This document shows, one piece after another, positions 3,001 to 38,273 of a DNA stretch of 40,079 bases. This DNA is from Bacteroidales bacterium. Its GTDB lineage: Bacteria > Bacteroidota > Bacteroidia > Bacteroidales > UBA3824. The stretch covers positions 1 through 40,079 of the forward strand of contig JAZUEG010000552.1 of the NCBI GenBank assembly GCA_045640025.1, given 5' to 3'. The number at the start of each line of letters is the position of its first letter. The stretch's first letter is position 1. The notes below the pieces were generated by a model. That model was not told where the DNA came from and did not search any database. It worked only from the letters and a program-made list of their open reading frames with translations. Position numbers and translations under genes: made by a program.

Positions 3001-5930
3001 TCGGTGGTAGTAAGCTCCCTCATTATACCGCCCCATCTGCTGGAAGGATTATTGAGCTTACCATCGGCATTGATACCAGCTGATATGCCGGTCTCGCCCT
3101 CCACATCAAAGTTGTAAGGGCCTCGCTCCTGAGGATAGTATGCAAGATTAAGCACCGTAAGCTGAGTGCTTATACCGCTGATGGACTGGGCATTTGGGAA
3201 AATCTCGCGCTCATATACAGCGCGTACGTAGTGGTTGCTCTGGTCGTCCTTGGTGATATGGCCCGGAGTAATTCCCGAACTCGAAATAGATGTGCCCTGA
3301 AGGTCGCTCAAAACATTGTACCACGCCAGGAGCGAACGGTTGTAGCCGTAGCGAAGGTCGTTGTTGAGCGATGCCTCGGCAAAACGCTTGGTGCCGCCCG
3401 GTGTGGATGCGAGCACCCACTTGGATAGCGACTTCACGTCGATCTTGGTCTGCGCGCTCTCAAAATCATCTATGTAGCAAGTGCCGGCCTTATCCACGCT
3501 GCGACTGTGGCCCGGGAGAAGCTGCGCAAACTCGCCCTCGAGGCTCAGCTTGCTGTCGGCCTTGGTGGATATCAGCGGAAGCTTGTCGATGATGGTTGTG
3601 AGAAAGGGCAGCGGAGTCGAGTATCTGGTATCGAGTCCCCAGATGGTGTTTTTGATAGGCTCGCTGCCCACCGATACCTTGTTGGTCATGGTTTTCTCGG
3701 AAAGCCTCATCACGGTACCGCCGATGTTGAAATTGTCGCTGAACTGGTAATTGAGGTGGGTACCCATGAGCGACTTGGTGGTGCTGTTGAATGTAGTATT
3801 GCTCTCTACTGATACCAGTATCTTGTTGCCTCCCTGAAGGATAGACTCGTTGACAATCTTGACCGAGCCCAGCAGATAATCCACTACGTAATCGGAGCCC
3901 TCGGTAAGGGTCATGCCTCCGCAGGTAACCTTCACCGAGCCTTCCTCTATGTTCATAGCGTTAAGTGAGATCTCGCTTCCCGAGCTGCTCTTGTACGATC
4001 CGGTAATGTAGAATTTGTCTTTTTCGGCATTCTGCTTGGCCACAGTCTTGGTGCTGTCGTACAGCTGAGGGAATGTGTATTTGGCGGCGGCCGACGGGTC
4101 GTTGATTCTCTCGGCCAGATAGTCGCCGAAAGGTTCCAGCTGAGGGAGATAGATTTTGGCCTTCTCGCTGTTTATCGTTACGCCTTCTATGAAATCGAAT
4201 ACACCATCAGGCATGCGCTCGAGCTTGGTGTTGGCATTGTCGAGGTTGAGCACCTTGATGAGCATCTTTCCGTCTATGTCGCCGGCTTCCAGATAGTTGA
4301 GGTCGGTTCCGGTCTTGTCGTTGCGGTATTTGATCTGAAGGCGGAAGTCCTCGCTCTGCACCTGGTAGGCATTGAGCGAATACACGTTTTTCATCATGAG
4401 CTTCCAGTTGGGGAGCTTGGGCGAGAATGCCGTGCCGCGCAGAAGCTTCAGGATGAGTGTCTCCGATGTATTGATTTCGGTGGAAAACTCTCCTACTTTG
4501 TAGGTCTTGCCCTTGTATGTATATTCGTATGCCACGGCCAGCACCTCGTCGTCCTGCAGTGAAGTATTTAGCGATATGAAACCGAGCTGAGGATTCAGCG
4601 TGTATTCCGACTGCGAGAGCATTCTTGCGTTTCCAATCTTCTCGTAGTCGGTGCCGGTCTCAAAACGTCCGTTCAGTGTGCTTGTTACAGAGTTGATGTC
4701 GCGGATGGCCTTGTAGCTGTTGGTAATGAGGGCGTAGAGAGAATTTGCGCCATTAGCTGGAAAATCCCCTACCGACTTACGGACAGCCGAGCGGTTGTAG
4801 ATGACCTCCGGCTCGCCGAGGTCGAGGAATGCCACCGAGTTTCTGGAATTGTCGGTGGAGAGCTTGGTGTTGGTGACCCAGACCTCTATCTTGGTGATAT
4901 TGATGCCCGATGTAATGGTGGGCAGATTCTGGAGCGCGGTCTCGTAATTGTTGCGGAAGTAGTGGTTGAGGAAGAAGTGGCGGTTGGCCTCATAATCAGA
5001 TGCTTGTATCGAGAATTCCTGCTGAACCGCTCCGGCGTTTACCTCTATGGTTTTGGTTTCGCCTTTCTGCTGCGATAGTACAGCTGATGCCGTCAACCGT
5101 CCGAACTTGAGGTCGGTCTTTACGCCAAAGAGAGTGGTGCTTCCCTGAATGAGTGTGCCGTTGAGCGGCATGGAGACATTGCCGAACTCTATGCGCTGGA
5201 TTATCTCGTCGCTGTGGCCGATGTACTCCACCTTCTGGTCGTTCTCGAATTCGAATGTGGACTCGGTGTTGTAGTTGAGGCCCACCTTCATCTTGTCGCC
5301 GATGGTTCCGGTAACGCCCACCTGGAGTTTCATGTCGAAATCAAACGATACATCGTTTCTCTGTTTCTTGGGCAGGGTAAAGTTGTCTACCTTGCTGATA
5401 TCCACACCCATGGACACCTCCACGTTTCCCTGCGGCTTGATGTCGATGATATTGCTGCCAAACACGCGGTCGAAACCCTGCAAGTTTACATTGATGCGGG
5501 GATTGAGATATCTGCTGAGGCCCGACTGGTTGTTCTTGTCGCTCAGGGTGTAGAGGTCCATCATCTGACGTCGCCAGTATTCCCTGAGCTCTGTGCGGCT
5601 CTGCACCGAGTCGTGCTCCTGTGCCGATATCAGCTGAGGTCTCGATATCTCCAGGTCGCCCACCTTGCGCACGGTGGTGTACTGGCCGGAGGCGTTGTCG
5701 TATCTGGTCTCGGTGGTTATGTTGTCAGGGTCCTTGAGCTGAACAGGGAAATTCCTGCGCTCCCTATTGGTGGGGATGCCCGAATCCGACTCAACTCTTG
5801 GTTTGGCCATCAGCTCCCTATACGGCACAGCATTATCCGACAGGGAGTTGTGGGCTCCCGACGAGAAAAACGAAGCTGCGATAATTGCGAATGCTCCGGC
5901 GAAACCTATAGTTCGGTTAATTTTTTTCAT
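1..5930 (-). CDS. sprA: T9SS translocon / gliding-motility protein SprA (Sov family). The N-terminal ~1976 codons are present and the 3' end runs off the left edge of the window.
   Basis: There is no stop in the window, so it is missing from the ORF track. The reverse complement from ATG 5930..5928 gives MKKINRTIGFAGAFAIIAASFFSS (signal peptide) ...RPQLISAQEHDSVQSRTELREYWRRQMM...IDIKPQGNVEVSMGVDISK...VGLNYNTESTFEFENDQKVEY...IQRIEFGNVSMPL...EANRHFFLNHYFRNNYE...ITKIEVWVTNTK, which I recognise as SprA family. I translated the first ~1.2 kb and the last 60 nt in frame without stops. Every other listed minus-strand ORF in 1..5930 is in a different frame. The long plus-strand ORFs are V/G/L/H-rich antisense shadows. 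The gene starts 4 nt after the ruvA stop, and ruvA-sprA linkage is known in Flavobacterium johnsoniae. Confidence 0.85.
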   Translation of the reverse strand, partial: MKKINRTIGFAGAFAIIAASFFSSGAHNSLSDNAVPYRELMAKPRVESDSGIPTNRERRNFPVQLKDPDNITTETRYDNASGQYTTVRKVGDLEISRPQLISAQEHDSVQSRTELREYWRRQMMDLYTLSDKNNQSGLSRYLNPRINVNLQGFDRVFGSNIIDIKPQGNVEVSMGVDISKVDNFTLPKKQRNDVSFDFDMKLQVGVTGTIGDKMKVGLNYNTESTFEFENDQKVEYIGHSDEIIQRIEFGNVSMPLNGTLIQGSTTLFGVKTDLKFGRLTASAVLSQQKGETKTIEVNAGAVQQEFSIQASDYEANRHFFLNHYFRNNYETALQNLPTITSGINITKIEVWVTNTKLSTDNSRNSVAFLDLGEPEVIYNRSAVRKSVGDFPANGANSLYALITNSYKAIRDINSVTSTLNGRFETGTDYEKIGNARMLSQSEYTLNPQLGFISLNTSLQDDEVLAVAYEYTYKGKTYKVGEFSTEINTSETLILKLLRGTAFSPKLPNWKLMMKNVYSLNAYQVQSEDFRLQIKYRNDKTGTDLNYLEAGDIDGKMLIKVLNLDNANTKLERMPDGVFDFIEGVTINSEKAKIYLPQLEPFGDYLAERINDPSAAAKYTFPQLYDSTKTVAKQNAEKDKFYITGSYKSSSGSEISLNAMNIEEGSVKVTCGGMTLTEGSDYVVDYLLGSVKIVNESILQGGNKILVSVESNTTFNSTTKSLMGTHLNYQFSDNFNIGGTVMRLSEKTMTNKVSVGSEPIKNTIWGLDTRYSTPLPFLTTIIDKLPLISTKADSKLSLEGEFAQLLPGHSRSVDKAGTCYIDDFESAQTKIDVKSLSKWVLASTPGGTKRFAEASLNNDLRYGYNRSLLAWYNVLSDLQGTSISSSGITPGHITKDDQSNHYVRAVYEREIFPNAQSISGISTQLTVLNLAYYPQERGPYNFDVEGETGISAGINADGKLNNPSSRWGGIMRELTTTDFETSNIEYLEFWMLDPFIYEQEGMGADLYFNLGHVSEDVLKDSRKSFENGIPYPMDESYIDTTAWGVVSTKTFLVNAFDNTNGAKEAQDKGFDGLDDDEERIFHQKYLDRIARMYGTDSEAYQQAYNDPSADNYHYFRGSDYDGQRLSIEEGYKHYNGSEGNSSDLGGNSSYSTIKDRYPDVEDINLDNTLSETESYYQYKVHLSPADMRIGSNYITDIVESNVKTVNGEQEVVKWYQFKVPIYEPDSTVGAISDFKSIRFLRMYLTNAQKNIILRFAEMNLVRGDWRKYNATMTEAGEFVTDTQFDQGILDITNVGLEENGSKQPVNYLLPPGIERERDYMTNQIVEQDEKAMALHVTNLPDGQAVAAYKTAMLDLRQYRKLKMYVHAEEKAGEILNDDDLHIFVRLGSDYKENYYEYEMPISVTPEGYYADDDNGRLAVWPLQNNVEIIFEQLQLVKQQRNNAARELGHNVAVTMPFTMENGDGSRITIMGNPNVSNIRTIMIGVRNPAQSSNVMEDDGMPKSAEIWVNELRLTDFDEQGGWAARGKAELQLADLATVTMTGYMHTPGFGSIEKRVQERHQETVYQYDVNTLVQLGKFFNSDYNVRMPFYYGYSESYELPKYNPLDPDIELNTTLKDPLLSKEEKDEVRDRSITYERRKSLNLTNVHMEGRSDEAKQNARLQKAIRQNPDKDPSEIKLDEPKAKQKPFYHISNFTAGMAYSEYYMHDITVQSQLEKILQSTLEYNYTYNPKNYKPFSKIGFLKNKYLAIIRDFNFYLLPTMIAFNGNIDRNYSQIQYRNVNSNDTYLDPTYRKDFNWTRRYELRYKLSQNLKLDFSANNESRVNPDGKIDNYATEKARDRDTIFMRYFDLGYNTRYTQNIKLNWQTPVNKIPGLGWTSLNAIYNADYEWNRGIDPLQVASGMSSDVMTIDHGNIINNSGILTLNGSLNFERLYKNIPYFKNVMGRFGKDGRKKANHDKKEVRYTKSGIRFNGGTPRS
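4748..4758 (-). repeat. Copy of over-represented word AGCTAATGGCG
   Basis: The plus strand reads CGCCATTAGCT. It lies inside sprA in the sense frame GCT-AAT-GGC-G (PANGA). Confidence 0.9.
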
Positions 5931-5934
5931 GTGG

Positions 5935-6534
5935 CTACTTAACGTTTCTTAAAGCAAATTTTATGAGGTCCTCGGTGCTCATTCTCGGGTTGGATGCCAG
6001 AGCCTGGTCTATAGCCTTGTCGGCCTGTCCCTTCTGGTATCCGAGCATTATGAGAGCAGCCAGAGCCTCCTCGCGGTGGGTGCCTGTGGCCTGCACATTA
6101 GCTACGCCATTAGCTCCATCCATCACATCGGCCTTGGCTATCTTGTCCTTGAGCTCTATTACCACACGCTGGGCAGTCTTGGGGCCAATGCCCTTAACCT
6201 TGCCTATCAGCTTGGCGTTTTCCTGGAGGATAGCGGCCTGCAGCTCTGCCGGACTCATCGACGAGAGTATCACCCTGGCGGTATTGGGGCCAATGCCCGA
6301 TACATCTATGAGCATGCGGAATATCTCGCGCTCGCTCTTATCGGCAAACCCGTAGAGCTGCTGAGTGTCTTCCCTCACAACGTGGTGGACATATAATTTT
6401 GCTTTTTCCTGATTCTCGAGCTGAGAATAGGTGTTCAATGATATGTTGATGAGCCAGCCGATGCCGCCGCCATTTTCCACAACGGCGTACGACGGATTGA
6501 GCTCGGCCAAAATTCCTGATATATATTCGTACAT
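5935..6534 (-). CDS. ruvA: Holliday junction branch migration complex subunit RuvA
   Basis: 199 aa. It has the MYEYISG N-terminus, helix-hairpin-helix motifs (VSGIGPNTARVIL, KGIGPKTAQRVVIELKDK) and a C-terminal domain III (EEALAALIMLGYQK). Confidence 0.92.
   Translation of the reverse strand: MYEYISGILAELNPSYAVVENGGGIGWLINISLNTYSQLENQEKAKLYVHHVVREDTQQLYGFADKSEREIFRMLIDVSGIGPNTARVILSSMSPAELQAAILQENAKLIGKVKGIGPKTAQRVVIELKDKIAKADVMDGANGVANVQATGTHREEALAALIMLGYQKGQADKAIDQALASNPRMSTEDLIKFALRNVK
6105..6115 (-). repeat. Copy of AGCTAATGGCG, followed by a second AGCTAATG
   Basis: The plus strand reads CGCCATTAGCT, with a further CATTAGCT at 6096..6103. It lies inside the ruvA linker in sense (GANGVANV). 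Confidence 0.9.
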
Positions 6535-6548
6535 GGTATTATAATTAC

Positions 6549-7169
6549 TTACAGTTCTCCATTCTCTATCCTTATGATGATATCCTCTATCATGCGGTCT
6601 TCCATGGTGGCATCGTATTCGGATTTCAGGTTGCTGCCAAACAGACGTGCAATTCCCTGAAACAGAAACGCGTTGAAACCGCCCTTCAGGTCCTTGAGCA
6701 CCTCGTAGGTAGTGCTTCCGGTCTCGCGGTCCACCAGCTTGATGAGTATTCGGCCCTGGGTGATGCTCAGATGCACAAGCTCGTCCTCAAACTGGGCTCG
6801 GAGCTTCTTCTCCTGGGCTTTCACAAATTCCTTCTGCTCTTTCTCGGTAGGAATCTTCGATATCGAATCGGTAAGCTCGCGATATACTTTCTTGATGAGC
6901 TTGGCGTATGGCCAAACCTTCTTGACATTGTATGTAAGCCTGTCGTAAGCCTGTTTCTGGCGCTTGGTACGCAGGATGAGCTTCGGCTTTATCACTATAG
7001 GATAATGCTGCACCATGAGTATGGTATCATGGTTCTCTATTCTGGCGGCGTAGGTCCTGGCCCTCGATACACGCTCCGGATCCTTGAGCTCATCGCCCTG
7101 GAGTATAATCTGCGCACGGCCGGCCGCCGACATCAAAAACATAATCGCCAACAATAGCAATTTTTTCAT
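6549..7169 (-). CDS. Secreted DUF4294-like protein
   Basis: 206 aa with signal peptide MKKLLLLAIMFLMSAAGRAQ. Segments LSITQGRILIKLVDRETG and FQGIARLFG are recalled as the DUF4294 family of Bacteroidota. Clean ORF upstream of ruvA. Confidence 0.65.
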   Translation of the reverse strand: MKKLLLLAIMFLMSAAGRAQIILQGDELKDPERVSRARTYAARIENHDTILMVQHYPIVIKPKLILRTKRQKQAYDRLTYNVKKVWPYAKLIKKVYRELTDSISKIPTEKEQKEFVKAQEKKLRAQFEDELVHLSITQGRILIKLVDRETGSTTYEVLKDLKGGFNAFLFQGIARLFGSNLKSEYDATMEDRMIEDIIIRIENGEL

Positions 7170-7314
7170 ACTTATTCTCGATTAATTACAATAATCCTAA
7201 TTTATAAAATTTGATACAAAAGTAAGGTAATATCGGCACTTAACAATGTTAAATATTTGTATTTTTGAAAAAAAATCTGAAATTTGCAGGCCTAATAACA
7301 AAAAACACAAAGAA

Positions 7315-8229
7315 ATGATAGCTCCACACCTACATCACGGCGATACAATAGGCATCATAGCGCCCGCCGGCCCCATCAGCGAGGCACAGCTACACAGCGC
7401 CGAGGGCAAGATACTCCATGCCGGATACAAGCCATTGGCAGCTAATGGCGTATTATCACGCAACGGCTATCTTGCCGGCAGCGACGAGGCCCGCGCCCAG
7501 CAGATAAACTCCATGTTCGCAAATCCCGACGTAAAGGCAATTATCTGTGCACGAGGCGGATACGGCACCACACGTATACTGGACCTTCTGGACTACGACC
7601 TCATAGCACGCAATCCCAAAATCATAGGCGGATATTCCGACATCACCGCCCTCACAATGGCCATCTGGAAGAAAACCAACCTCGTGACATTCCACTCATC
7701 AATGCTGGTGCCCGAGGACACAGAATATACGCGAACCTCAATGTGGAATATTTTCAGCCACGGATCCCGCGGATACAAGATACTCTGCGAGCCGCAATCG
7801 GGCGACGGCGTGGTAATGAAAGCCGGCCGCGCGCAGGGCACTCTCATAGGCGGCAATCTTACATTACTGGAGCAGCTGATAGGCACAAAATACGACTACA
7901 CCCTCCACAACAAGATCCTCTTCGTGGAAGAAATCAACGAGCCGCCCTACAAGGTGGACCGTATGCTCACACACATCCGCAACACTAAAAACATGAGCGG
8001 ACTCAAGGGAATAATCTTCGGCAAGATGCAGGGATGCGAGGCCCAGGGCGACAACAGCCTTGCCCTCCAGGAAGTTCTCAACGATTTTGTATCAGGACTC
8101 GATATCCCGGTAGTAAAAGATTTCAGCTTCGGCCACGTAAAATCGCGATGCACCCTTCCCGTTGGAGCCAAAGTGTCTCTTCGCACCGACAAGATGGAAA
8201 TCCGCCTGCTGGAAGACGTGGTGATGTAA
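7315..8229 (+). CDS. ldcA: LD-carboxypeptidase (peptidase S66 family)
   Basis: Motifs GDTIGIIAPAGP, ARGGYGT, GYSDITAL (nucleophile Ser) and FGH near the C-terminus. The ORF opens at 7246, but I prefer ATG 7315 (MIAPHLHHGDTIG...), because a TAnnTTTG-type box (TATTTTTG, 7260..7267) lies inside the longer version. Confidence 0.82.
   Translation: MIAPHLHHGDTIGIIAPAGPISEAQLHSAEGKILHAGYKPLAANGVLSRNGYLAGSDEARAQQINSMFANPDVKAIICARGGYGTTRILDLLDYDLIARNPKIIGGYSDITALTMAIWKKTNLVTFHSSMLVPEDTEYTRTSMWNIFSHGSRGYKILCEPQSGDGVVMKAGRAQGTLIGGNLTLLEQLIGTKYDYTLHNKILFVEEINEPPYKVDRMLTHIRNTKNMSGLKGIIFGKMQGCEAQGDNSLALQEVLNDFVSGLDIPVVKDFSFGHVKSRCTLPVGAKVSLRTDKMEIRLLEDVVM
7440..7450 (+). repeat. Copy of AGCTAATGGCG
   Basis: It lies inside ldcA in sense (AANGV). 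The 19-mer at 7438..7456 is identical at 18 of 19 positions to 9263..9281. Confidence 0.9.
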
Positions 8230-8253
8230 AGAGTAAAGCTTAAAGTGTAAAGT

Positions 8254-9357
8254 TTAAAGACTCTCCTCCCATTCGTATCTTGAATTTCTGCGGCAAGGGA
8301 TGAAGCCAGCCTCGCGGATGGCGATTACCATCTCGTTCTTATCGAGCGAGTAGTTGGCACCGGCCGACGACACCACGTGCTCCTCCATCATTATGGACCC
8401 GAAGTCGTTGGCGCCCGAGTGCAGGCAAACCTGCGCCACGCCCTTTCCCACAGTAAGCCACGAGGCCTGTATATTCCTGATATTGGTAAGCATAATTCTC
8501 GATATCGCAATCATACGGACATATTCGTCGCCCTCAATCCTGGCGAACGCCCCCATCTCCTTCTCCAGGCGAGTGCCTTCGCTCCAGAACGGCCATGGAA
8601 TAAAAGTAATGAAGCCCTCGGAATAGTCAGGCTTGCGGCTCTGAGTCTCGCGCAACGCCACAAGGTGCTCTATGCGCTCGCGCACTGTCTCCACATGACC
8701 GAACATCATGGTAGCTGATGTCGCGAGATTCAGCACGTGCGCCTGATGCATCACCTCCAGCCATTCAGCAGCCGTGCACTTGGCCGGCGATACAATCCTG
8801 CGAACCCTGTCCACAAGAATCTCGGCACCCGCACCCGGCAGGCTGTCGAGTCCCGATTCGTTGAGAGTCTTCAGCGTATCATAATACGAGAGGTTGCTCA
8901 CCTTGCTCAGATAAGCCACCTCCGCCGGACCCAGGGCATGAAGTATCAGCCCGGGAAACTCACGTTTCAGCTCCGAAAAAAGACCAGTATAAAAATCGAG
9001 CCCCATATCCTTGTTCATGCCGCCCTGGAGCAGAATCTGGCGTCCTCCGGCAGCGAAAAGCTCATTAATCTTCTGCTTGTACTCATCCATCGTAGTTACA
9101 TAAGCATCAGGAGCATTCTTGCTTCTCGAAAAATTACAGAACTTGCATCTTGTGGAGCAGATATTCGATAGATTGATATTGCGGTCTATTATCCAGCCCA
9201 CCTTCTTGCGGTCGGCCTCGGGGCGCAACTTGTTCTTGATCTCATTGGCCACATAGCTCAGTGCAGCTAATGGCGCATTATTATACAAATACTCGCCCTC
9301 GTCCACAGTGAGGGGTTCCTGATTCAATGCTCTTGAAAGTAATTCTTCGATATTCAT
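8254..9357 (-). CDS. Radical SAM enzyme of the CofH/MqnC/MqnE family (menaquinone biosynthesis via futalosine)
   Basis: Starts at MNIEELLSRAL (ATG 9357). It has the CxxxCxxC cluster motif NICSTRCKFCNF, followed by ILLQGG, GAEIL, ATMMFGHVE and HSGANDFGS. The 81-codon upstream extension in the ORF track (to 9600) overlaps the divergent neighbour and looks non-coding. Confidence 0.75.
   Translation of the reverse strand: MNIEELLSRALNQEPLTVDEGEYLYNNAPLAALSYVANEIKNKLRPEADRKKVGWIIDRNINLSNICSTRCKFCNFSRSKNAPDAYVTTMDEYKQKINELFAAGGRQILLQGGMNKDMGLDFYTGLFSELKREFPGLILHALGPAEVAYLSKVSNLSYYDTLKTLNESGLDSLPGAGAEILVDRVRRIVSPAKCTAAEWLEVMHQAHVLNLATSATMMFGHVETVRERIEHLVALRETQSRKPDYSEGFITFIPWPFWSEGTRLEKEMGAFARIEGDEYVRMIAISRIMLTNIRNIQASWLTVGKGVAQVCLHSGANDFGSIMMEEHVVSSAGANYSLDKNEMVIAIREAGFIPCRRNSRYEWEESL
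9265..9275 (+). repeat. Copy of AGCTAATGGCG
   Basis: It is antisense to the radical SAM gene, which reads GCG-CCA-TTA-GCT-GCA (APLAA). Confidence 0.9.
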
Positions 9358-9380
9358 GGCTGCTGTAATAAAATTTGGGA

Positions 9381-9407
9381 CAAATTTACAAAAAGTTTGT
9401 AAATTTG
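9381..9407. promoter_or_regulatory. Perfect 12-bp inverted repeat containing two outward-facing TAAATTTG (-7 type) boxes, giving divergent back-to-back promoters
   Basis: CAAATTTACAAA (9381..9392), aag, TTTGTAAATTTG (9396..9407). Each arm read outward contains TAAATTTG, which matches the Bacteroides sigma-A -7 consensus TAnnTTTG. There are 23 nt between each box and its ATG (9357 on minus, 9431 on plus). Confidence 0.5.
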
Positions 9408-9430
9408 TAACCAAATAAAAAAAACAAGAG

Positions 9431-10165
9431 ATGCTTAAAAAATTTGCACTATTAGCTGCCACAGTAACAATGCTGCTGACAGCATGCGAAAACCAGAGAC
9501 CGCCGCTCTCGCAGACCCAATGCGCACAGGCGATATTCGAGATACACCGCGCCGACGCCATAATGACCCTGAAAGGCCTGAGCGACAGCAATCTAAACAA
9601 CGATTCGCTGTCGTACTACAACTACGTATTCGCCAAACTGGGAATCAGCCGCAAGGATTTTCTGGATGCAATACGCTGGTACATCAACCACCCCGAAAAA
9701 TACAAGAGCGTATACCGGGAGGCCATCAAGATAGCCAGCCAATACGAGCAGAGCGAGCGCGCAAGATACGAGATAAACACCGAGCGCGAGCCCAACGACA
9801 TCTGGGACATGAAAAAGAACTGGAACCTTCCGCTCGACGGCGAAAAAAATCCGATCTCGTTCAATATCAAGGCCAACGGACCGGGCCTCTACACACTGGG
9901 CGCCGACATCACGTATTACAAGGACGACCAGACCATAGAGCCGGCCATGACCCTGATAGTGGAATACGAGGACGGCACCATAACCCGCAACTCGGTAATC
10001 GACATACTGAAAGACGGCAAGGAACGCCACATAGAGGTAATGCTGGAGGCCGATTCCAGCAAAAGAATCAGCTGCCTGCGCGGCTGGGTGCTCGACCACT
10101 CGAGCGAGACCGAGAGCAAGCACATCGACTGCTACAACATTACCCTGAAGCGAACCAAAGAATAA
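9431..10165 (+). CDS. Lipoprotein, DUF4296-like
   Basis: 244 aa with a lipobox (LLTAC). The N-terminal helix segment QCAQAIFEIHRADAIM resembles DUF4296 lipoproteins. No catalytic motifs were recognised. Confidence 0.6.
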   Translation: MLKKFALLAATVTMLLTACENQRPPLSQTQCAQAIFEIHRADAIMTLKGLSDSNLNNDSLSYYNYVFAKLGISRKDFLDAIRWYINHPEKYKSVYREAIKIASQYEQSERARYEINTEREPNDIWDMKKNWNLPLDGEKNPISFNIKANGPGLYTLGADITYYKDDQTIEPAMTLIVEYEDGTITRNSVIDILKDGKERHIEVMLEADSSKRISCLRGWVLDHSSETESKHIDCYNITLKRTKE

Positions 10166-10168
10166 TAA

Positions 10169-10891: not shown

Positions 10892-10924
10892 AGAGAATAT
10901 TAAAAATAAATAAAGAATACAAAC

Positions 10925-11383
10925 ATGAAAATGAACTTAGTAATCGGACAGGGCATTGGACCTGCCAAATTCGGAATGACCGAAGAAGAGATCGTAGACC
11001 TTTTCGGAAAACCAGACGACAGAGAGGTAGAGGACTACGGCGACGGCAAAACCCTCACCCTATTCTACGACACAATGATGACAGACTTCAGTTTTGAGCT
11101 CGACGAAGACGAAGACGGCAACGACCTCTACAAGCTGAGCTCGATACTATGCGTAAATCCCGAATACACTCTCGACAACAAGATAAAATTCGGAGACAGC
11201 GAGGAGCAGTTCATCAAATACACCCACAACCTCAAGGCCGCCGACCCTCAGGTGGAAATAGACAACGAGACCAAGGAAAGAATCCTCTACTTCGACGATC
11301 TGAGCCTGATGGCAATTTTTGACGACGAAGGCCTTTCCACCATCCAGATAGGCTACTGGGAAGAGGAAGACGAAGATGAATAG
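10925..11383 (+). CDS. Hypothetical hyper-acidic small protein
   Basis: 152 aa with no signal peptide. It is D/E-rich throughout and ends in an EEEDEDE tail. Clean ORF in a gene-dense co-directional run. Confidence 0.55.
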   Translation: MKMNLVIGQGIGPAKFGMTEEEIVDLFGKPDDREVEDYGDGKTLTLFYDTMMTDFSFELDEDEDGNDLYKLSSILCVNPEYTLDNKIKFGDSEEQFIKYTHNLKAADPQVEIDNETKERILYFDDLSLMAIFDDEGLSTIQIGYWEEEDEDE

Positions 11384-31151: not shown

Positions 31152-31588
31152 ACACCAGTATGTCCAAAACCGCCATCTGACCTTACTGTCTCGGATAATT
31201 TTTCAACTACCTGAAACTCAGCTTTTTCGTATTTTGCAATCACCATCTGACAAATACGATCTCCACTGTGAATTGTGAAATCCTGGTCAGAAAGGTTGAT
31301 AAGAATTACCTTGATTTCGCCACGGTAATCAGCATCAATAGTTCCCGGAGAATTAAGCACGGTGATTCCAGACTTGATGGCAAGGCCCGAACGCGGACGT
31401 ATCTGAGCCTCGTAATGTTCTGGCAATTCGATAAATAACCCTGTTGGAACCAAGACTCTCTGCAATGGTTTCAATACGATATCCTCATCGAGATTAGCGC
31501 ACAAGTCCATACCGGCCGAATACTCAGTTGAATATTTCGGCAATGGATTCTTGCTCTTATTTATGATGTTAATTACCATAGTTTTCAA
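31148..31588 (-). CDS. dut: dUTP diphosphatase
   Basis: 146 aa with the dUTPase motifs [21 protein letters not shown] and [10 protein letters not shown]. Confidence 0.95.
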
Positions 31589-31639
31589 TGTTTAAACAGT
31601 TTCTGTGCAAAATATCACAAATACAAAAATAACTAAAAA

Positions 31640-33145
31640 TCATCGCTTTAGCAATTTATTGATGAAATTTTTTAGAGGCTGGAAAAGATTTTCCATCTTC
31701 AAAACCAACAATGCAAAAGATATGATTATCAGAGAGTTGATACATAATGATGCAATCAACTGCATATCATTGGTAAACATAAACACACAATGTATCAATA
31801 CAGCCACTATTGTATATATGATCATTTTCTTGAAATCGTAATCGCATTTCAGATATTTTCTTCCCCATACGAAAGTGATTATCAGCATCACTAGATAACA
31901 CAACACATTAGACCAAGCGCAGGCCACATATCCGAACATCGGTACAAGTATCATATTAGCTAATACAGTGACGATACATCCCGCCAGGAATATATAAATG
32001 CCATAAACTGTCTTGTTGTTGAGCTTGTACCAGAAAGACTGAAGATAAACCATGCCCACAAGCAAGTGACCTATCAAAAGATACGGCACAACATTAAGGC
32101 CTTCCCAATAACTTTCGGATATGAAATATTTTACAATATTGATGAAACCCATTATTCCGACAAATATGAATAACCCAAAGAGCCACAAGTATTTATTTAT
32201 AGTCGCAAACATTGGATTGAAATCCTGACTGTCACGTTTAGAGAAGAAGAAGGGGTCAGCCGCATATCTGAAACATTGTATGAACAATGTCATGAGAACA
32301 GCGATTTTGGTATTAGCCCCATAAATTCCCATCTGACTGCGGATATAAATTTCCGGATCGGAAATTCCATCGGGAACTACGTAGAAAAACTTGATGGCAA
32401 TTCTATCGAAGAATTCGTTTATCATGCCAGCTAATCCAGAAACAATCAGCGGCAACGAATACACGAGCATCTTCTTGAGCAAGTCAAAATCAAAAGTGAA
32501 TTTGGTTTTCAGATACACCGGCAGGAACAACAGGAATGTAATTACCGACGAAACCAAATTGGAAACAAAGATGTATCCAACTCCAAATTCCGGTGAATAA
32601 ATCGAATTGAAAACTTCGTGATTCTGAGCGAGTTTCGGCAACCAAACAATGAAAAACAGATTCAGGAAAATCTGAATCAGAATTCCTATCAGCTTGAAAA
32701 TAGCAAACTTGAGAGGCTTGTTCTGCTGACGAAGCCAGGCAAATGGAATTGATGTAAAGGCATCAAGTCCAAGAATCAAGACAAAATATTTGATGAATTC
32801 CACATGATCGTCGTAATCTATCCAATGCGCGATATTGTCGGAAAAGAGAATTCCAACTAATATGAAAAACGAGCTCGTGGTAAAGAGGGCAGCTGATGCC
32901 GTACTGAAAACTTTCGACGAATCCGGCTCAAGTTTCGAGAAATTGAAGAAGCCGGTCTCCATGCCGTAAGTCAGGAGAATCAGCAAAAACGATACATAAG
33001 CATACAGCTCTACAACCACTCCATATTCGGCAGTGGTGAAATAATATGTATAAAGCGGAACGAGAAGATAATTCAGGATTCGTCCCACTATAGAGCTAAG
33101 TCCGTACACAAATGTCTGACTAGCAAGTTGTTTCAGTTTGCCCAT
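31640..33145 (-). CDS. Oligosaccharide/polysaccharide flippase family membrane protein (MOP/Wzx-like)
   Basis: 501 aa of polytopic membrane protein. The N-terminus MGKLKQLASQTFVYGLSSIVGRILNYLLVPLYT is typical of Bacteroidota polysaccharide biosynthesis proteins. Confidence 0.7.
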   Translation of the reverse strand: MGKLKQLASQTFVYGLSSIVGRILNYLLVPLYTYYFTTAEYGVVVELYAYVSFLLILLTYGMETGFFNFSKLEPDSSKVFSTASAALFTTSSFFILVGILFSDNIAHWIDYDDHVEFIKYFVLILGLDAFTSIPFAWLRQQNKPLKFAIFKLIGILIQIFLNLFFIVWLPKLAQNHEVFNSIYSPEFGVGYIFVSNLVSSVITFLLFLPVYLKTKFTFDFDLLKKMLVYSLPLIVSGLAGMINEFFDRIAIKFFYVVPDGISDPEIYIRSQMGIYGANTKIAVLMTLFIQCFRYAADPFFFSKRDSQDFNPMFATINKYLWLFGLFIFVGIMGFINIVKYFISESYWEGLNVVPYLLIGHLLVGMVYLQSFWYKLNNKTVYGIYIFLAGCIVTVLANMILVPMFGYVACAWSNVLCYLVMLIITFVWGRKYLKCDYDFKKMIIYTIVAVLIHCVFMFTNDMQLIASLCINSLIIISFALLVLKMENLFQPLKNFINKLLKR

Positions 33146-33227
33146 AATAACAAAAATGTGAATATTAACGCAAATTTACAAAAGATAAACCGAAAAAGAA
33201 AATCTGCGCAAACTAAAACTGCAATTC

Positions 33228-34361
33228 CTAAACAAAGAATTCTGAAATTATATAGTCAGATATAAAAATTCCATCAAGATTTAAGTTCACATAATCGCCG
33301 TTAAATGCGAAATAATCAATCAAATCTCTACGATTGAGATTTTTTTCAAAATCTTTGAAATATTTTGCGAAACGCGATTTAATTGTAGGCAGATGAATTC
33401 CCTTTCTTGTGCGTAGACTCAGCATTATGAATTCGTTGTATTGGTCATCAGCTGATAGAATTTCCTTCTCGGAAAACTGCTCGAGATTCTGTATCTGCTG
33501 ACCATACTGCGAAAGTCCGCGCGAATTCCAACCTCGTGAATTGTTGAAATAGGAATGTGCCGATGGTCCAAATCCCAAGTATGGAACAAAATCCCAGTAA
33601 TTGGAATTGTGAAGCGAGTGCATTCCGGGTTTGCAATAGTTAGAAATCTCATAGTGCTGATATCCAAGCGATTCCAATAAATAATGTATCAGCTGAAACT
33701 GCCTTAGGAAAAAATCATCGTCCATTTTCCTAATCTGACCCTTTCGGAGTTTCAGCATAAAAGGCGTATTCTCCTCAATTCCAAGACTATAAGCGGAAAT
33801 ATGTGGTACGCCATTAGCTGCCAAAAAACGAAAACTGCGCTCTATCTCCTGATCGGTAAGTATCTCGTAGCCAAAGATATAATCGGCTGAATAATTGGAG
33901 AAACCGTATTTCTGACAAAGGTCGAGATAGCGCAGATTATCAGATACCGAATGATTGCGCCCAAGATATTGGAGTCCATTATCGTCCATCGCCTGAAAAC
34001 CTGTACTAAGTCGATTGACGAAACCGCTGGATTTCAGCTCATTAAAATACGAATCCACGGCATGCTCGGGATTTATCTCGATTGTGCATTCAATATTTTT
34101 GTTCAAAGTATAGCAATTTTCAATGGTTTGATATATCTTTGCAATATAAGAAAAGGGGAGAATGGAAGGAGTGCCCCCGCCGAAATAAATTGTATCAATA
34201 GTCTGATCCTGAAACAGATATGATTTCATCTCGATTTCGGAAATCAGATTATTCACAAATTTTTCTGCAATAGACTTATCCTTAACAAGCCTTACTGAAA
34301 AGAAATCGCAATATCCGCATTTCTTCTCACAAAAGGGAATATGAACGTAAATACCTGACAT
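33228..34361 (-). CDS. hemW: Radical SAM family heme chaperone HemW / oxygen-independent coproporphyrinogen oxidase-like
   Basis: The start is set at ATG 34361 (MSGIYVHIPFCEKKCGYCDF, the CxxxCxxC motif). It also has YFGGGTPS, the ...HISAYSLGIEENTPF signature and a HemN_C-like tail. The 62-codon upstream extension in the ORF track overlaps the divergent vanZ-like gene. Confidence 0.82.
   Translation of the reverse strand: MSGIYVHIPFCEKKCGYCDFFSVRLVKDKSIAEKFVNNLISEIEMKSYLFQDQTIDTIYFGGGTPSILPFSYIAKIYQTIENCYTLNKNIECTIEINPEHAVDSYFNELKSSGFVNRLSTGFQAMDDNGLQYLGRNHSVSDNLRYLDLCQKYGFSNYSADYIFGYEILTDQEIERSFRFLAANGVPHISAYSLGIEENTPFMLKLRKGQIRKMDDDFFLRQFQLIHYLLESLGYQHYEISNYCKPGMHSLHNSNYWDFVPYLGFGPSAHSYFNNSRGWNSRGLSQYGQQIQNLEQFSEKEILSADDQYNEFIMLSLRTRKGIHLPTIKSRFAKYFKDFEKNLNRRDLIDYFAFNGDYVNLNLDGIFISDYIISEFFV
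33809..33819 (-). repeat. Copy of AGCTAATGGCG
   Basis: The plus strand reads CGCCATTAGCT. It lies inside hemW in sense (AANGV). The 15-mer GCAGCTAATGGCGTA is shared with 7438..7452. Confidence 0.9.
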
Positions 34362-34713
34362 GAAAGAATTTATCAAAAAATACAAATACAGCATCATCTG
34401 GGCTGTAATAATGATGATAGGATGCACGGCCAACGTGAGCAGCGACGATTCAGAGCCCAAAATCCCGTACTTCGACAAGATAGTGCATTTCGGAATTTTC
34501 GGATTGCTCGCTATGCTGGCCACCATCGAGAAAAAAACAGCATCCATCGCAACTCTCTTGGTATGTGCAGCTTACGGAGTTGCCATAGAGCTGATACAAT
34601 ATTTCCTGCCCTGGCGCTCATTCGAGGTGCTCGATATGGTATTCGATACACTGGGAGCCGGAGCAGGAATTATTGCAGCTAATATCTTGATGAAAAAGAT
34701 AATTAGCAAGTAG
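34360..34713 (+). CDS. VanZ-like family membrane protein
   Basis: 117 aa with 3-4 TM helices. VanZ-like signatures are DKIVHFGIFGLL and AIELIQYFLPWRSFEVLDMVFDTLGA. Confidence 0.65.
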   Translation: MKEFIKKYKYSIIWAVIMMIGCTANVSSDDSEPKIPYFDKIVHFGIFGLLAMLATIEKKTASIATLLVCAAYGVAIELIQYFLPWRSFEVLDMVFDTLGAGAGIIAANILMKKIISK

Positions 34714-34716
34714 AGA

Positions 34717-35157
34717 TTACTTTACAGGCATCTTCTCGATACGGCGCTGATGACGACCGCCCTCAAACTCGGTGCCGAGGAATGCCTCAAGAATCTTGAT
34801 AGCCTCGTCCTGCGAGATAAAGCGGGCAGGCATGCTGAGCACATTAGCATTGTTGTGCGAGCGGCCCAGACGGCTGATCTCCTCGTTCCAGCAGAGCGCG
34901 CAGCGGATACCCTGATGCTTGTTGGCAGTCATGGAAATACCATTGCCGCTTCCGCAGATTGTGATACCGAAAGTATCGGGATTGCTCTCCACAGCCTCGG
35001 CGAGAGGATGTGCAAAATCTGCATAATCACAAGACTCGGTGCTGTTGCAGCCAAAGTCCTCAACCTCGTAACCCTTCTTCTGAAGGTAGTCCTTCACGAA
35101 AAGCTTCAATTCGTAGCCAGCGTGATCCGAGGCCATGAACAATTTGTTGATTTTCAT
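34717..35157 (-). CDS. rpiB: Ribose-5-phosphate isomerase B
   Basis: 146 aa with ASDHAGYELK, ICGSGNGISMTANK and GGRHQRRI. Confidence 0.92.
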   Translation of the reverse strand: MKINKLFMASDHAGYELKLFVKDYLQKKGYEVEDFGCNSTESCDYADFAHPLAEAVESNPDTFGITICGSGNGISMTANKHQGIRCALCWNEEISRLGRSHNNANVLSMPARFISQDEAIKILEAFLGTEFEGGRHQRRIEKMPVK

Positions 35158-35198
35158 AATGTTAACTAATTATATTGGTTAAAAAAACATTGTGTATC

Positions 35199-35710
35199 AG
35201 CTAATGTGGACAACTTAAAAAAGCCGTCAAAACATAAGAGACTGAAAATAAAGAGATTAGCAAATTTTACATTTAGTATCATAAGCTAATCATTTTGTTA
35301 TAAATCAGCTAATTACAAGACTTATAAACATGGTGTGTTAATAACACTGTTAATAACTGTTGATAACGCCGCCACCTATGTGGAAAACCGTGACAAAGGT
35401 AAAAATTATCAACAGAAACCAATTAATTTCCACAAAAAATTAACAGTTTGTCCACCGCAAAAACACATCTTCACCATCAGCTGCTTATCCACATCAGTAT
35501 TTCAGCTAATGGCCAGCTAATGTGAATAACTCTTGTAACCGCCAATTATTCAGAAAAATAATCGGCCATGCCAATGTGGATAAAAACACTGCAAATGTGG
35601 AAAACTCAAAAGCCAAAATTAAAGAAAAAAAGTTATCCACAATATCCACACGCAATAAAAAACAATAAAAGAATTAAAAAATAAAAAAATAAATAATATT
35701 AATTTGAAAG
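35199..35710. other. Candidate chromosomal replication origin (oriC): DnaA-box cluster plus AT-rich unwinding tract
   Basis: Perfect TTATCCACA / TGTGGATAA boxes lie at 35485..35493, 35575..35583 and 35633..35641. One-mismatch boxes lie at 35205..35213 (TGTGGACAA), 35358..35366 (TGTTGATAA), 35379..35387 and 35596..35604 (TGTGGAAAA), 35521..35529 (TGTGAATAA) and 35642..35650 (ATATCCACA). Weaker boxes lie at 35426..35434 and 35448..35456. A roughly 90% A+T tract at 35651..35710 abuts the last two boxes. The whole lies in a 559-bp gene-free spacer between divergent rpiB and nadA. Confidence 0.65.
35504..35513 (+). repeat. Copy of AGCTAATGGC (10-mer), intergenic, inside the putative oriC
   Basis: The sequence is AGCTAATGGCC, followed immediately by AGCTAATGTGAATAA (35515..35529), so the word is fused to a DnaA box. 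Confidence 0.9.
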
Positions 35711-35716
35711 AAAACG

Positions 35717-36703
35717 ATGGAAGGAGCTTTGAAACCAACCCTCAAGAACGGACATATCGACATGCCGGTTCCAGAGGGCACAGACCTTAGGGCAGAGATA
35801 GCGAGAATGAAAAAAGAGAAAAACGCTGTAATACTCGCCCACTACTATACTACAGCCGAAGTGCAGGAAGTGGCCGACTACACCGGCGACAGCCTGGGCC
35901 TAAGTCAGCAGGCAGCTAAAACAGATGCCGACATAATCCTCTTTGCCGGAGTGCACTTTATGGCCGAGACAGCCAAAGTACTTTCGCCGAAAAAGAAAGT
36001 GCTGATCCCCGACCTGGCTACAAGCTGCTCGCTGGCCGATTCAGTTACCGAAATGGCCCTGGCCGAGTGCAAGAAAAAATATCCCGACCACACTGTAATC
36101 TCATACGTAAACACAACCGCCGAGGTTAAGGCCCTCACCGACATTGTGGTAACATCCAGCAACGCCGTAAAGATAGTGAGCCAGCTGCCCGCCGACGAGA
36201 AAATAATCTTCGGCCCCGACAAGAACCTCGGCAACTACGTGAAGAAGGTGACCGGCCGCGACGACATGATAATCTGGGACGGCGGATGCCACGTTCACGA
36301 CCATTTCGACGCAGAGGCGCTCCGCAAGCTGAAAGCCGAGCATCCGGCTGCGAAGGTACTCGCCCACCCCGAGTGCAACGAGTCTATTCTCAGCCAGGCC
36401 GACGTGATAGGTGCCACATCAGCTCTCCTGAAAGCCACTTGCGAATTGCCTGATACAGAGTTCATTGTAGCCACCGAGCCCGGCATATTCTACGAGATGA
36501 AGAAACGCAATCCGCAGAAAACATACATTCCCGTGCCCAACGAGAACGGCCACCCATACAATGTATGCCAAAACATGAAGCGCAACAATCTCGTGAAGAT
36601 CTACAACACGCTAAAATACGAATTTCCAGAAGTGGACGTGCCGGAGGCCCTCAGCAACAAGGCCATTAGCTGCATAACACGCATGATGGAAATGAGTAAA
36701 TAA
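35717..36703 (+). CDS. nadA: Quinolinate synthase NadA
   Basis: 328 aa with ILAHYYT, AGVHFMAETAKVL, SYVNTTAEVKA, HPEC and ATEPGI. Confidence 0.93.
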   Translation: MEGALKPTLKNGHIDMPVPEGTDLRAEIARMKKEKNAVILAHYYTTAEVQEVADYTGDSLGLSQQAAKTDADIILFAGVHFMAETAKVLSPKKKVLIPDLATSCSLADSVTEMALAECKKKYPDHTVISYVNTTAEVKALTDIVVTSSNAVKIVSQLPADEKIIFGPDKNLGNYVKKVTGRDDMIIWDGGCHVHDHFDAEALRKLKAEHPAAKVLAHPECNESILSQADVIGATSALLKATCELPDTEFIVATEPGIFYEMKKRNPQKTYIPVPNENGHPYNVCQNMKRNNLVKIYNTLKYEFPEVDVPEALSNKAISCITRMMEMSK

Positions 36704-36725
36704 TCCACATAACACTTTTTTTCAG

Positions 36726-38273
36726 ATGAAAAAGTTTTGTTTGTTCCTTACGGCATTGCTGATATCCACCACATTCTGCATGGGACAAAACCAGATAGTA
36801 GCTAATGGCTACAACAAATTCTACTATCCCGACGGCTCAATATCGTCGGAGGGCACACTCCGCGATGGCAAGCCCGACGGATTCTGGAAGACATATTATC
36901 CAAACGGCAAGCTGAAATCGGCCGGCAAGCGCACCGATTTTCTGCTCGACAGCACATGGGTATTCCTGGACGAGCGCGGCGACACCACAAGCCTCATTAG
37001 CTACAATTACGGCAAGAAAAACGGCTATTCGTGCACCTACGAGACCTTTGCCGACAGCATCAGTCACAACGTGGTAAAGGCCCGTGAGCTATACCGCGAC
37101 GACAAGAGGCAGGGTTACGCCTACTACTACAAGAAAGGCCTTCTGGACAGCGAAATTCCATACAAAGACGACAGAAAGCATGGCGAAGGATACCAATACG
37201 ACAAAAATGGCACTATCGTCGCAGTTTTGACCTATAAATACAACGATCTTGTGGACCGCATGATAATAAACAGAATCGACGAAAACGGTCTAAAACAGGG
37301 CTTTTTCCGCACGTTCTACCCCGACAAGAAGGTCAAGACCGAATGCTACTATAAAGACGGCAAATTGAACGGATATTTCCGCGAGTTCGATCAGAGAGGC
37401 AAGGAAATATCGGCCGTAAGATACATCAACGGCGAGCTTCAGCAGGAGCAGAAGAATCAGCTGGCATCCGACGCATCCGCCGCCAAAGTCAAGATTGAGT
37501 ACAACGACAACGGAACCATGAAAAAATCGGGCGCATACAAGGACAACAAGCCCGTGGGTGTACACCGCACCTACAACAAGGACGGCAAGATAAACGGCGG
37601 ATCGCTCTACGACGACAACGGCATCAAGATAGCCGACGGTGTAACCGACGGCCGGGGACGCGAGCAGGGCAAATGGACCGTATACGACAGCACCGGCGCC
37701 GTAAGGGCCAAGGGCCAGTACAAGAACGGCAAGCGCGACGGACAGTGGTACTTCTACTTCCCCGACGGCAAAACCGAGCAGGAAGGTGTCTACAAGGACG
37801 GCAATCCCGACGGCAAGTGGATGTGGTATTTCCACGACGGCAAAACCCGCCGCGAGGAGCACTTCGCCAAGGGCAAGGAAGACGGCATATACTACGAGCT
37901 CAGCCAGGCCGGCGACACGCTGCAGTCCGGCGAATACATTGAGGGCGAGAAACACGGCATCTGGCGCATGACCACCGGCGATGCCATGGTGGTGGAAAAC
38001 TTCAACGACGGCATTCCCCATGGCGAATACACCATCTACACATTGCCGGGTATGTCTATTCGCGTGCAGTCCAAGTATCTGAACGGCAATCTGCACGGCA
38101 AATTCACCGAATATTACGACGACGGCAAGGTATACCGCGAGGGCCAGTACATGGGCGGCAACCAAAACGGACCTTGGAAAATCTACACCGAGGAGGGACT
38201 CCTGGAAACCACCATCGAGTACCTTCAGGGCGAGATCGTAAAAATAGACGGAGTGGATATGCCCAAGAAATAG
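36726..38273 (+). CDS. Secreted MORN-variant repeat protein (YwqK-like repeats)
   Basis: 515 aa with a signal peptide. It has about 15 or more reiterations of the G-x-x-x-G-x-W-x-x-Y-Y-x-x-G-K pattern (for example DGKPDGFWKTYYPNGKLKS and DGQWYFYFPDGKTEQEG). Confidence 0.8.
   Translation: MKKFCLFLTALLISTTFCMGQNQIVANGYNKFYYPDGSISSEGTLRDGKPDGFWKTYYPNGKLKSAGKRTDFLLDSTWVFLDERGDTTSLISYNYGKKNGYSCTYETFADSISHNVVKARELYRDDKRQGYAYYYKKGLLDSEIPYKDDRKHGEGYQYDKNGTIVAVLTYKYNDLVDRMIINRIDENGLKQGFFRTFYPDKKVKTECYYKDGKLNGYFREFDQRGKEISAVRYINGELQQEQKNQLASDASAAKVKIEYNDNGTMKKSGAYKDNKPVGVHRTYNKDGKINGGSLYDDNGIKIADGVTDGRGREQGKWTVYDSTGAVRAKGQYKNGKRDGQWYFYFPDGKTEQEGVYKDGNPDGKWMWYFHDGKTRREEHFAKGKEDGIYYELSQAGDTLQSGEYIEGEKHGIWRMTTGDAMVVENFNDGIPHGEYTIYTLPGMSIRVQSKYLNGNLHGKFTEYYDDGKVYREGQYMGGNQNGPWKIYTEEGLLETTIEYLQGEIVKIDGVDMPKK
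36800..36809 (+). repeat. Copy of AGCTAATGGC (10-mer)
   Basis: It lies inside the MORN-repeat gene in sense (VANGY). Confidence 0.9.

Follow-up and report, generated by a model that had tools for sequence, protein, structure and literature searches.

A 40,079-nt stretch of DNA from an uncultured gut Bacteroidales bacterium, of a lineage known only from metagenomes (GenBank assembly GCA_045640025.1, contig JAZUEG010000552.1; the whole stretch is referred to below as the window), carries an asymmetric 11-nt word, AGCTAATGGCG, and a sibling word family, (T)CAGCTGA(T/A), which includes the octameric palindrome TCAGCTGA, on both strands and well above the frequencies given by chance or codon usage. 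We tentatively read these as self-marking words of the kind represented by the DNA uptake sequences (DUS) of Neisseriaceae, the uptake signal sequences (USS) of Pasteurellaceae and the highly iterated palindrome HIP1 of cyanobacteria, which would accumulate by directional drive. The window is 95% coding, with 30 genes including sprA, ruvA, ldcA, recO, uvrC, mnmG, ybeY, dut, rpiB and nadA, and its nearest public sequences come from animal faeces, as metagenome-assembled genomes or contigs. Comparisons were made with L003 (91.5% nt identity, syntenic with window positions 1-16564), L001 and L002 (75-82% identity) and L093, L094 and L095 (65-80% identity across 25.7-40 kb of the window; L094 is the same genome as L002), as well as the more distant relatives L096, L097, L099 and L100 (NadA 84-68% identical) and L092, another strain, which comes from an independent run and is 99.0% identical to the window. 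A metagenome scan with NadA yielded only distant relatives (<=60%), which served as controls. An exact-protein search with the 339-aa TPR protein gave no match and RpiB turned up solely on a 987-bp contig; the source genome is thus absent from the indexed collections.

The 11-mer AGCTAATGGCG is present seven times, against 0.02 copies in dinucleotide-preserving shuffles and 0.11 in synonymous-codon shuffles (global and within-gene) that keep each protein sequence; the 10-mer AGCTAATGGC is present ten times (0.10 and 1.2 expected, respectively) and the core AGCTAAT 33 times (480..39392, both strands; 6.0 +/- 2.2 and 10.6). Synonymous-codon shuffles were used in place of maximum-order Markov z-scores, which dilute long motifs and were uninformative. 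The excess of these words is real, beyond chance or codon usage. An earlier, sequence-only reading had listed the seven 11-mers, and recounting matched its positions exactly; it gave two further 10-mers, both confirmed, and overlooked a third (36662-36671, minus strand), making the total ten rather than nine, while its estimate of about 32 cores against about 5 expected was borne out by the recount. The shared flanks that it quoted are also correct and reach further, to an exact 18-mer, TTGGCAGCTAATGGCGTA (7435-7452, with an inverted copy at 33807-33824), and to 85% identity between the 26 nt starting at 7438 and the 26 nt starting at 9263. Twice, two units are found in tandem, AGCTAATGGC(N1-2)AGCTAATGTG, in ruvA (6094-6115, minus) and in an intergenic region (35504-35524, plus).

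Copies of AGCTAATGGCG with 0, 1 and 2 mismatches number 7:7:25, where chance would give 1:33:495. Aligned copies define a logo of T-rich (-6..-3), C(-1), AGCTAAT, R, G, C, G, with only weak upstream information and a purine at position 8 in 30 of the 33 cores, and the information content of the word corresponds to 11-13 nt. Cores of 7-8 nt occur at 0.8-1.1 per kb and the full 10-mer at 0.25 per kb. Twenty-two unrelated 20-kb control loci were run through the same enrichment pipeline and their best 7-mer reached merely 1.5-3x expectation, the sole exception being a cyanobacterial locus, L075 (metagenome contig OGCL01000136.1). This served as positive control, and recovery of HIP1 from it (CGATCGC, 64 copies vs 24 in codon shuffles) validates the pipeline. 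Among ~70 loci compared for raw density of the word, both the window and L003 stand out as outliers.

Seven of the nine genic 10-mers are in a single sense frame, (NNA) GCT AAT GGC (G..), encoding Ala-Asn-Gly, and the other two are read antisense, each in a frame of its own; one further 10-mer and seven AGCTAAT cores lie in non-coding DNA. The sequence-only description of copies on both strands and in several frames is thus right about strands and antisense copies and overstates the spread among frames. The 7:2 sense bias reflects coding opportunity, since AGCTAAT is enriched ~13-fold both in the sense frame (17 vs 1.3 expected) and in the antisense frame (7 vs 0.5), and a signal acting on RNA or translation is ruled out on the same ground. 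No copy uses the frame that would generate a stop codon. Ala-Asn-Gly is spelled GCT AAT GGC (GCTAATGGC) in seven of seven cases, although codon usage predicts 6% for each, GCT AAT accounts for 20 of 44 Ala-Asn pairs and TCA GCT for 20 of 55 Ser-Ala pairs, and the Ala-Asn-Gly tripeptide itself is ~2.5x over-represented (7 vs 2.8 expected). The flagged word is a property of double-stranded DNA, not of codon usage or of a peptide, as the sequence-only reading had proposed, given the uniform spelling of the tripeptide, equal sense and antisense enrichment and copies in non-coding DNA. Codon-usage or codon-pair bias was rejected because the excess persists in both global and within-gene shuffles and antisense frames are equally enriched, and a hidden-stop (‘ambush’) function, in which every word carries CTGA or CTAA, because antisense copies without such a stop are just as enriched.

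Five 10-mer copies lie in the 16.5 kb common to the window and L003, which itself has only one. The single shared copy is that in sprA (4748..4758, minus; sense frame, Pro-Ala-Asn-Gly-Ala). In ruvA, the tandem AGCTAATGGCG-T-AGCTAATGTG (6094..6115, minus) lies in a variable linker (~residues 140-147) between the HHH_5 and RuvA_C domains and is specific to the window lineage, changing Ala-Ala-Gly-Thr-Ala-Ser-Ile in L003 to Ala-Asn-Gly-Val-Ala-Asn-Val. The 11-mer in the LD-carboxypeptidase gene ldcA (7440..7450, plus; sense, Ala-Ala-Asn-Gly-Val) is within the shared 18-mer and corresponds to AGCTGATGGCG in L003 and CAGCAAACTCC in outgroups. That at 9265..9275 (plus) is antisense in a radical-SAM CofH/MqnC-like gene (Ala-Pro-Leu-Ala-Ala), where GGCCAACGGCG became AGCTAATGGCG via three synonymous transitions after the split from L003, while the copy in recO (10354..10364, plus; sense frame) falls on a conserved Ala-Asn-Gly, with GCC AAC GGC changed to GCT AAT GGC.

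Further copies are found in a 1224-aa DUF4175 gene within a stretch of 34% G+C (26321..26331, minus, sense; CTGCGAATGGCG in L094) and in a HemW-like radical-SAM gene (33809..33819, minus, sense), where relatives encode Ala-Ser-Arg-Gly-Val (GCATCACGCGGAGTT) and the window Ala-Ala-Asn-Gly-Val. The second tandem, AGCTAATGGCC-AGCTAATGTG (35504..35524, plus), is non-coding and inside the probable replication origin described below; its second unit shares bases with a DnaA box, TGTGAATAA, and the tandem is not present in L093, L094 or L095. The 10-mer missed previously (36662..36671, minus) is antisense in nadA (Ala-Ile-Ser-Cys), where L093 has AGCTGACGGC and the change is Val to Ile. The last (36800..36809, plus) is in the sense frame of a MORN-repeat gene, with GCT AAT GGC where relatives have GCC AAT GGC or GAC AAC GGC.

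In syntenic alignments, orthologous sites in L003, L001, L002 and L093-L095 are equal in length to those of the window and differently spelled, with no indels, and the copies were thus created in place by point substitution in conserved genes rather than by repeats or insertions. The substitutions that create the 11-mer fall at many positions and include transversions; most are synonymous and some are non-synonymous at poorly conserved positions, where weak constraint on the protein is at times overridden. Third codon positions account for many of the gains, by C>T or G>A transitions. Neutral evolution of the L003 sequence under the observed substitution spectrum gave 0.47 10-mers compared with the five observed, a number reached in 0/3000 simulations, and 3.9 +/- 1.6 copies of the 7-mer compared with ten. 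L003 has copies of its own where the window has none (L003:2397, L003:19671), which indicates that the gain process has been active in both sister species. The second strain, L092, retains all four cores that it covers.

These alignments make it extremely unlikely that the copies are a dispersed repeat (e.g. miniature inverted-repeat transposable element or repetitive extragenic palindrome), an assembly or basecalling artefact or planted sequence. The sequence-only reading had itself named a repeat family or assembly artefact as a possibility, which fails because conserved genes acquired the copies through substitution. Identical strings of up to 18 nt in unrelated genes would fit it. However, no length has been added relative to orthologues, similarity of flanks ends within ~18-26 nt, the stop-generating frame is avoided, L003, an independent public metagenome-assembled genome, has its own copies, L092 keeps those it covers, and systematic miscalling could not make different precursors converge on one word.

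A functionless by-product of context-dependent mutation or codon-context bias, in which avoidance of GATC and CTAG strengthens a general AGCT/CTGA bias, would account for the many third-position C>T and G>A transitions. CTGAT is also 1.5x commoner clade-wide, the neighbours of CAGCTGA are mildly enriched, and the scarcity of C after CTGAT (1-8% vs 23% in controls) is explained by avoidance of GATC. We nevertheless consider this very unlikely: within-gene codon shuffles leave a 5-60x excess while the 22 control loci remain at 1.5-3x, perfect 11-mers are as many as those with one mismatch, AGCT itself is only ~1.4x its composition expectation, and transversions and amino acid replacements also converge on the 11-mer. 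A general drift towards AT in the lineage of the window was rejected, as G+C of the shared region is 48.9% vs 49.7% in L003, and so was GGCC-to-AGCT conversion as a general process, GGCC being equally abundant in all relatives.

Some new copies lie in multi-nucleotide clusters: at 33810-33819, six of ten core bases differ from L093-L095, and in the ruvA tandem 5/10 bases, or 13/29 with flanks, differ from L003 against a background divergence of 8%. Raised divergence around new copies in general has weak support (P = 0.04 for all sites and 0.19 once the ruvA site is left out). Such clustered replacements, convergence of flanks (85% identity across 26 nt in a pair of unrelated genes whose reading senses are opposite) and the presence of eight cores in a 559-bp origin spacer of one lineage leave room for an active, sequence-specific conversion process that would overwrite near-matches with an 11-13-nt word, with a specificity that changed between sisters (e.g. 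templated patch repair, an oligonucleotide-directed mechanism or a new form of biased gene conversion), the words then being its footprint and not uptake signals. We assign little probability to such a process. As a separate test, words one substitution away from CAGCTGA, AGCTGAT and AGCTAAT were examined for biased short-patch repair; none of them is depleted, and a repair signature is absent.

The sequence-only reading mentioned AGCTGAT as a frequent sibling that might explain part of the excess. It is frequent, and the caveat was understated, since the sibling words (2375..39851, both strands) are as enriched as the flagged one: under the codon-preserving null, AGCTGAT is found 43 times vs ~15, CAGCTGA 43 times vs ~11 and CAGCTGATA 14 times vs 0.83. 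The palindrome TCAGCTGA occurs 12 times, or 0.3 per kb, vs 0.65 in dinucleotide shuffles and 2.1 in codon shuffles. Of the five frames without a stop, four show enrichment of CAGCTGA, by 3-11x. At the 36 CAGCTG sites, A flanks ~60% of sides, and full palindromes (12) are about as many as independence predicts (~12.8); a cooperative palindrome was rejected, as both the halves of TCAGCTGA and combinations within ATYAGCTRAT are as frequent as under independence.

CAGCTGA is the top word not only in the window but also in L003 (34 vs 4.4) and L093 (32 vs 7.3). Its positions turn over: window and L003 share 14, with two found only in the window and seven only in L003, while window and L093 share none, with 12 and 13 private to each. 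In L001 and L002/L094 (~78% identity) AGCTAAT is absent and CAGCTGA scarce, and CTGATAC is over-represented instead (17 vs 3.2 in L001; 24 vs 5.9 in L002), CTGATAC and CTGATGC being enriched 4-10x in all five stop-free frames. L096, L097, L099 and L100 have no hyper-abundant word, with top-word ratios of 1.5-3x. The phenomenon is thus confined to a small subclade, within which the preferred word shifts between species, and the 11-mer is the youngest layer, sharing the skeleton AGCT-R-AT with the older sibling word. Absence of the motif from close relatives, which the sequence-only reading regarded as telling against an uptake function, is found by half, in that relatives at ~78% identity lack AGCTAAT but have other hyper-abundant words, and such lineage-specific words seem to resemble DUS dialects more than they refute the uptake idea.

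A T-rich run precedes several cores (21378, 25054, 38348 and 39830, and also 21843, 22434, 34669 and 39836; e.g. TTTTATTTCAGCTGAT, TTTTTTTCAGCTGAT, TTTATTCCAGCTAATAGC), which hints that the older word may also have a weak AT-rich 5′ flank, like USS. Further words exceed codon-aware expectation: TAATGGCG (13 vs 2.7, including GATAATGGCG four times), CGACAAGA (15 vs 3.2), TTGCCGTC/GACGGCAA (13 vs 3.7, partly within MORN repeats at 37719-37847), CGACATCA (10 vs 1.4) and GCTGATATCCA (4 vs 0.07). CAGCTGATGCCG is present three times (5081, 12316 on the minus strand, and 32890).

Species-level word switching is typical of restriction-modification specificities, and the AGCT/CAGCTG core is a classic palindromic methyltransferase target, with TCAGCTGA halves that behave independently. 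Together with depletion of CTAG and GATC, which points to a genome shaped by site-specific enzymes, and the reported link between HIPs and orphan methyltransferases (Elhai 2015, PMC4390886), this would fit a methylation-linked iterated palindrome with no role in uptake, the classical idea for HIP1. An orphan or restriction-modification methyltransferase would act at AGCT/CAGCTG, while AGCTAATGGCG would need another enzyme or a longer form of the site, and the words would spread by methyl-directed biased mismatch repair or by selection on methylated sites, e.g. in replication control, where the eight cores in the probable origin recall GATC in E. coli oriC. We regard this as unlikely, though the likeliest of the rivals. 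The lack of depleted neighbour words means that the signature of very-short-patch repair is absent, the substitutions creating the 11-mer fall at many positions and include transversions, and crowding of cores at the origin is not conserved in relatives. Moreover, we know of no methyltransferase site as long as eleven contiguous specified bases. There is no methyltransferase gene among those of the window.

The origin in question is the 559-bp spacer (35158..35716) between the divergent genes rpiB and nadA. It contains ten DnaA boxes (TTATCCACA; three perfect, seven with one mismatch) within ~450 bp and an AT-rich tract (35640-35710), and both the length of the spacer (558-559 bp) and the cluster (9-12 boxes) are kept in L093, L094 and L095; no dnaA gene lies near the spacer. 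Given the boxes, the AT-rich tract, the divergence of the flanking genes and retention of the box cluster in three relatives, the spacer is very probably the chromosomal oriC. Five AGCTAAT and three AGCTGAT cores are found here, ~14 per kb vs 1.9 per kb overall, with AGCTAA abutting TGTGGACAA and TGTGAATAA. Homologous spacers of relatives hold only 0-2 of their own words, and the idea that the words play a conserved part at the origin was rejected for this reason. In L097/L098 (NadA 80% identical) there is an inversion of the dut-nadA segment, with its genes rpiB, vanZ, radical-SAM, DUF481 and flippase; rpiB no longer adjoins nadA, so this lineage has had its origin spacer rearranged or moved.

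Crowding beside DnaA boxes, high density, both orientations, intragenic copies and an information content (11-13 nt) typical of a protein site could all reflect weak selection on individual sites to which an abundant sequence-specific protein binds, one that is nucleoid-associated, organises the chromosome or regulates replication. This seems to us distinctly unlikely, as positions are not conserved (none of the 12 CAGCTGA sites is shared with L093), close relatives manage without the word, origin crowding is lineage-specific, and weak selection at each site would hardly force non-synonymous changes in ruvA and hemW.

Polarity can be judged directly with oriC inside the window. The 10-mer is found six times on the leading and four times on the lagging strand, AGCTAAT outside oriC 16 and 12 times, CAGCTGATA six times on the plus and eight times on the minus strand, and AGCTGAT ~21 and 22 times, respectively. 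A replichore-polar signal, either Chi (RecBCD/AddAB) or the FtsK-orienting polar or architecture-imparting sequences (KOPS/AIMS; FtsK), has in its favour that such signals are likewise short, over-represented words found also inside genes, here including recombination genes (two of the seven 11-mers are in ruvA and recO), and that Chi in E. coli has a density similar to one 10-mer per 4 kb. Those signals are, however, strongly co-oriented with replication, 75-90% for known Chi/KOPS words, whereas the words here, with a probable origin in the window, show no replichore polarity. This excludes Chi/KOPS-type signals, a Chi-like role having been raised in the sequence-only reading, and we give explanations of this class next to no probability.

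We return to the reading as self-marking words. A directional, strand-symmetric and genome-wide accumulation of this kind would be expected from molecular drive if a step of DNA exchange were sequence-specific, the likeliest candidate being preferential uptake and/or recombination of word-bearing fragments, possibly read in methylated form. DUS and USS work in this way, and the same is now argued for HIP1. Each new copy would then be transmitted more often than the motif-less allele, giving a species-specific label of self, and differences in words between species would reflect shifts in the specificity of the reader protein. Molecular drive by sequence-biased uptake or recombination is the only well-understood process with such a signature. 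The remainder of our probability is reserved for an explanation not yet conceived.

DUS (ATGCCGTCTGAA and dialects) and USS (AAGTGCGGT/ACAAGCGGT) are likewise words of 9-12 nt that exceed codon-aware expectation on both strands with no polarity and are tolerated in particular reading frames of housekeeping genes. They also raise the encoded tripeptides 2-2.5x, their perfect copies are not outnumbered by those with one mismatch, and related lineages favour different words, which here share CTGA, and gain copies separately, at sites that are not homologous. The location of two of the seven 11-mers in recombination genes (ruvA, recO) is a further likeness. Tripeptides encoded by true uptake sequences become about twice as frequent, and these sequences sit at poorly conserved residues (Findlay & Redfield, PMC2817400), and a bias in their orientation within ORFs (open reading frames) is also known (PMC2346458). 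The likeness to DUS/USS claimed in the sequence-only reading thus holds for orientation, tolerance within ORFs, peakedness (7:7), lineage-specific words and the 2.5x excess of the tripeptide; it does not extend to inverted terminator pairs. HIP1 (GCGATCGC) is matched by the octameric palindrome TCAGCTGA, with its classic methyltransferase-type core, by frame-independent abundance within genes that varies with lineage, and by abundance that is kept while positions turn over. HIP1 enhances natural transformation in a way that depends on methylation (bioRxiv 10.1101/2024.09.10.611283; 10.64898/2026.06.24.733823). Unlike HIP1, the flagged 11-mer is asymmetric, the words are found in a few species rather than phylum-wide, and the octamer occurs at 0.3 per kb vs up to >1 per kb. 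The window words differ from DUS and USS in being known here by genomic behaviour alone, in a new phylum and with new sequences. What is new relative to DUS, USS and HIP1 is the phylum, the sequences, the coexistence of two words and turnover at the level of species.

Several points weigh against self-marking words. Two words coexist in one genome, one of them palindromic, unlike DUS/USS, and the preferred word switches between species only 9-22% apart, while known DUS dialects change more slowly. At 0.25 per kb, the 10-mer is 3-4x sparser than DUS/USS (~0.8-1 per kb), a density that only the 7-8-mer cores attain. Terminator-forming inverted pairs, frequent in Neisseria and Haemophilus, were not seen in a repeat scan, which had low power in a window so densely coding and returned only overlapping palindromes (e.g. 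ATCAGCTGAT, ATTAGCTAAT). Eight cores are crowded in oriC in the window lineage only, and an uptake model predicts no such crowding. No competence, pilus or receptor gene is among the 30 genes of the window, and the data comprise ~40 kb of the source genome and ~120 kb from five related species. To our knowledge, sequence-preferring natural competence is undescribed in Bacteroidota, and our literature search found no report of these words or of uptake-type words in this phylum.

Self-marking words have so far been found in two proteobacterial families (DUS, USS) and in cyanobacteria (HIP1), with continuing debate about their mode of spread. An additional case of independent origin, in uncultured gut Bacteroidales, would provide a natural time series, with sisters at 91%, ~80% and ~70% identity that have a young 11-mer, an older palindrome, another word or none, from which gain rates, costs to proteins and the responsible gene or genes could be found by simple genome comparison. 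Should the words label self DNA for uptake or recombination, this would imply sequence-selective exchange and species barriers in a dominant gut phylum in which transformation has barely been studied. The words also distort codon usage and k-mer signatures (~1/3 of Ser-Ala and nearly half of Ala-Asn pairs) and might serve as lineage barcodes for binning of metagenomes.

Other features of the window were noted. CTAG occurs eight times on both strands vs ~100-300 expected, and is similarly rare in close relatives, and over the whole window GATC and GTAC are at 0.42 and 0.57 of Markov expectation, which suggests that palindromic tetramers are under strong site-specific (restriction/modification or repair) pressure. 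G+C content falls from ~52% (1-9 kb) to 33-35% at 23-32 kb (DUF4175, M23 peptidase, DUF4292, TPR and dut genes) and rises to 53% at 36-38 kb. As L093-L095 have the same trough in the same place, this is a conserved regional feature, and a chimeric assembly was rejected. Rfam and tRNA scans of the window gave no matches. A 201-aa minus-strand ORF (9593-10198) with no Pfam match lies in a region (9431-10359) where it overlaps the beginning of recO (10169) as well as two ORFs of the plus strand, 9431-10165 and 9484-10359. A VanZ-like ORF (34360-34713, plus) is called in relatives and falls outside the greedy gene set of the window.

The window also carries a set of genes resembling a partner-switching system, encoding a SiaC-family phosphoprotein (13822-14214), an RsbW-like kinase of the HATPase_c_2 family (23437-23832) and tandem SpoIIE/PP2C phosphatase paralogues (14382-16613 and 16641-19037), which share segments of 71-79% identity 2352 nt apart. 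The second of these paralogues is missing from L003 or highly diverged there, and contains few cores and three near-misses (TGATAATGGCG, twice, and CGCTAATGGCG).

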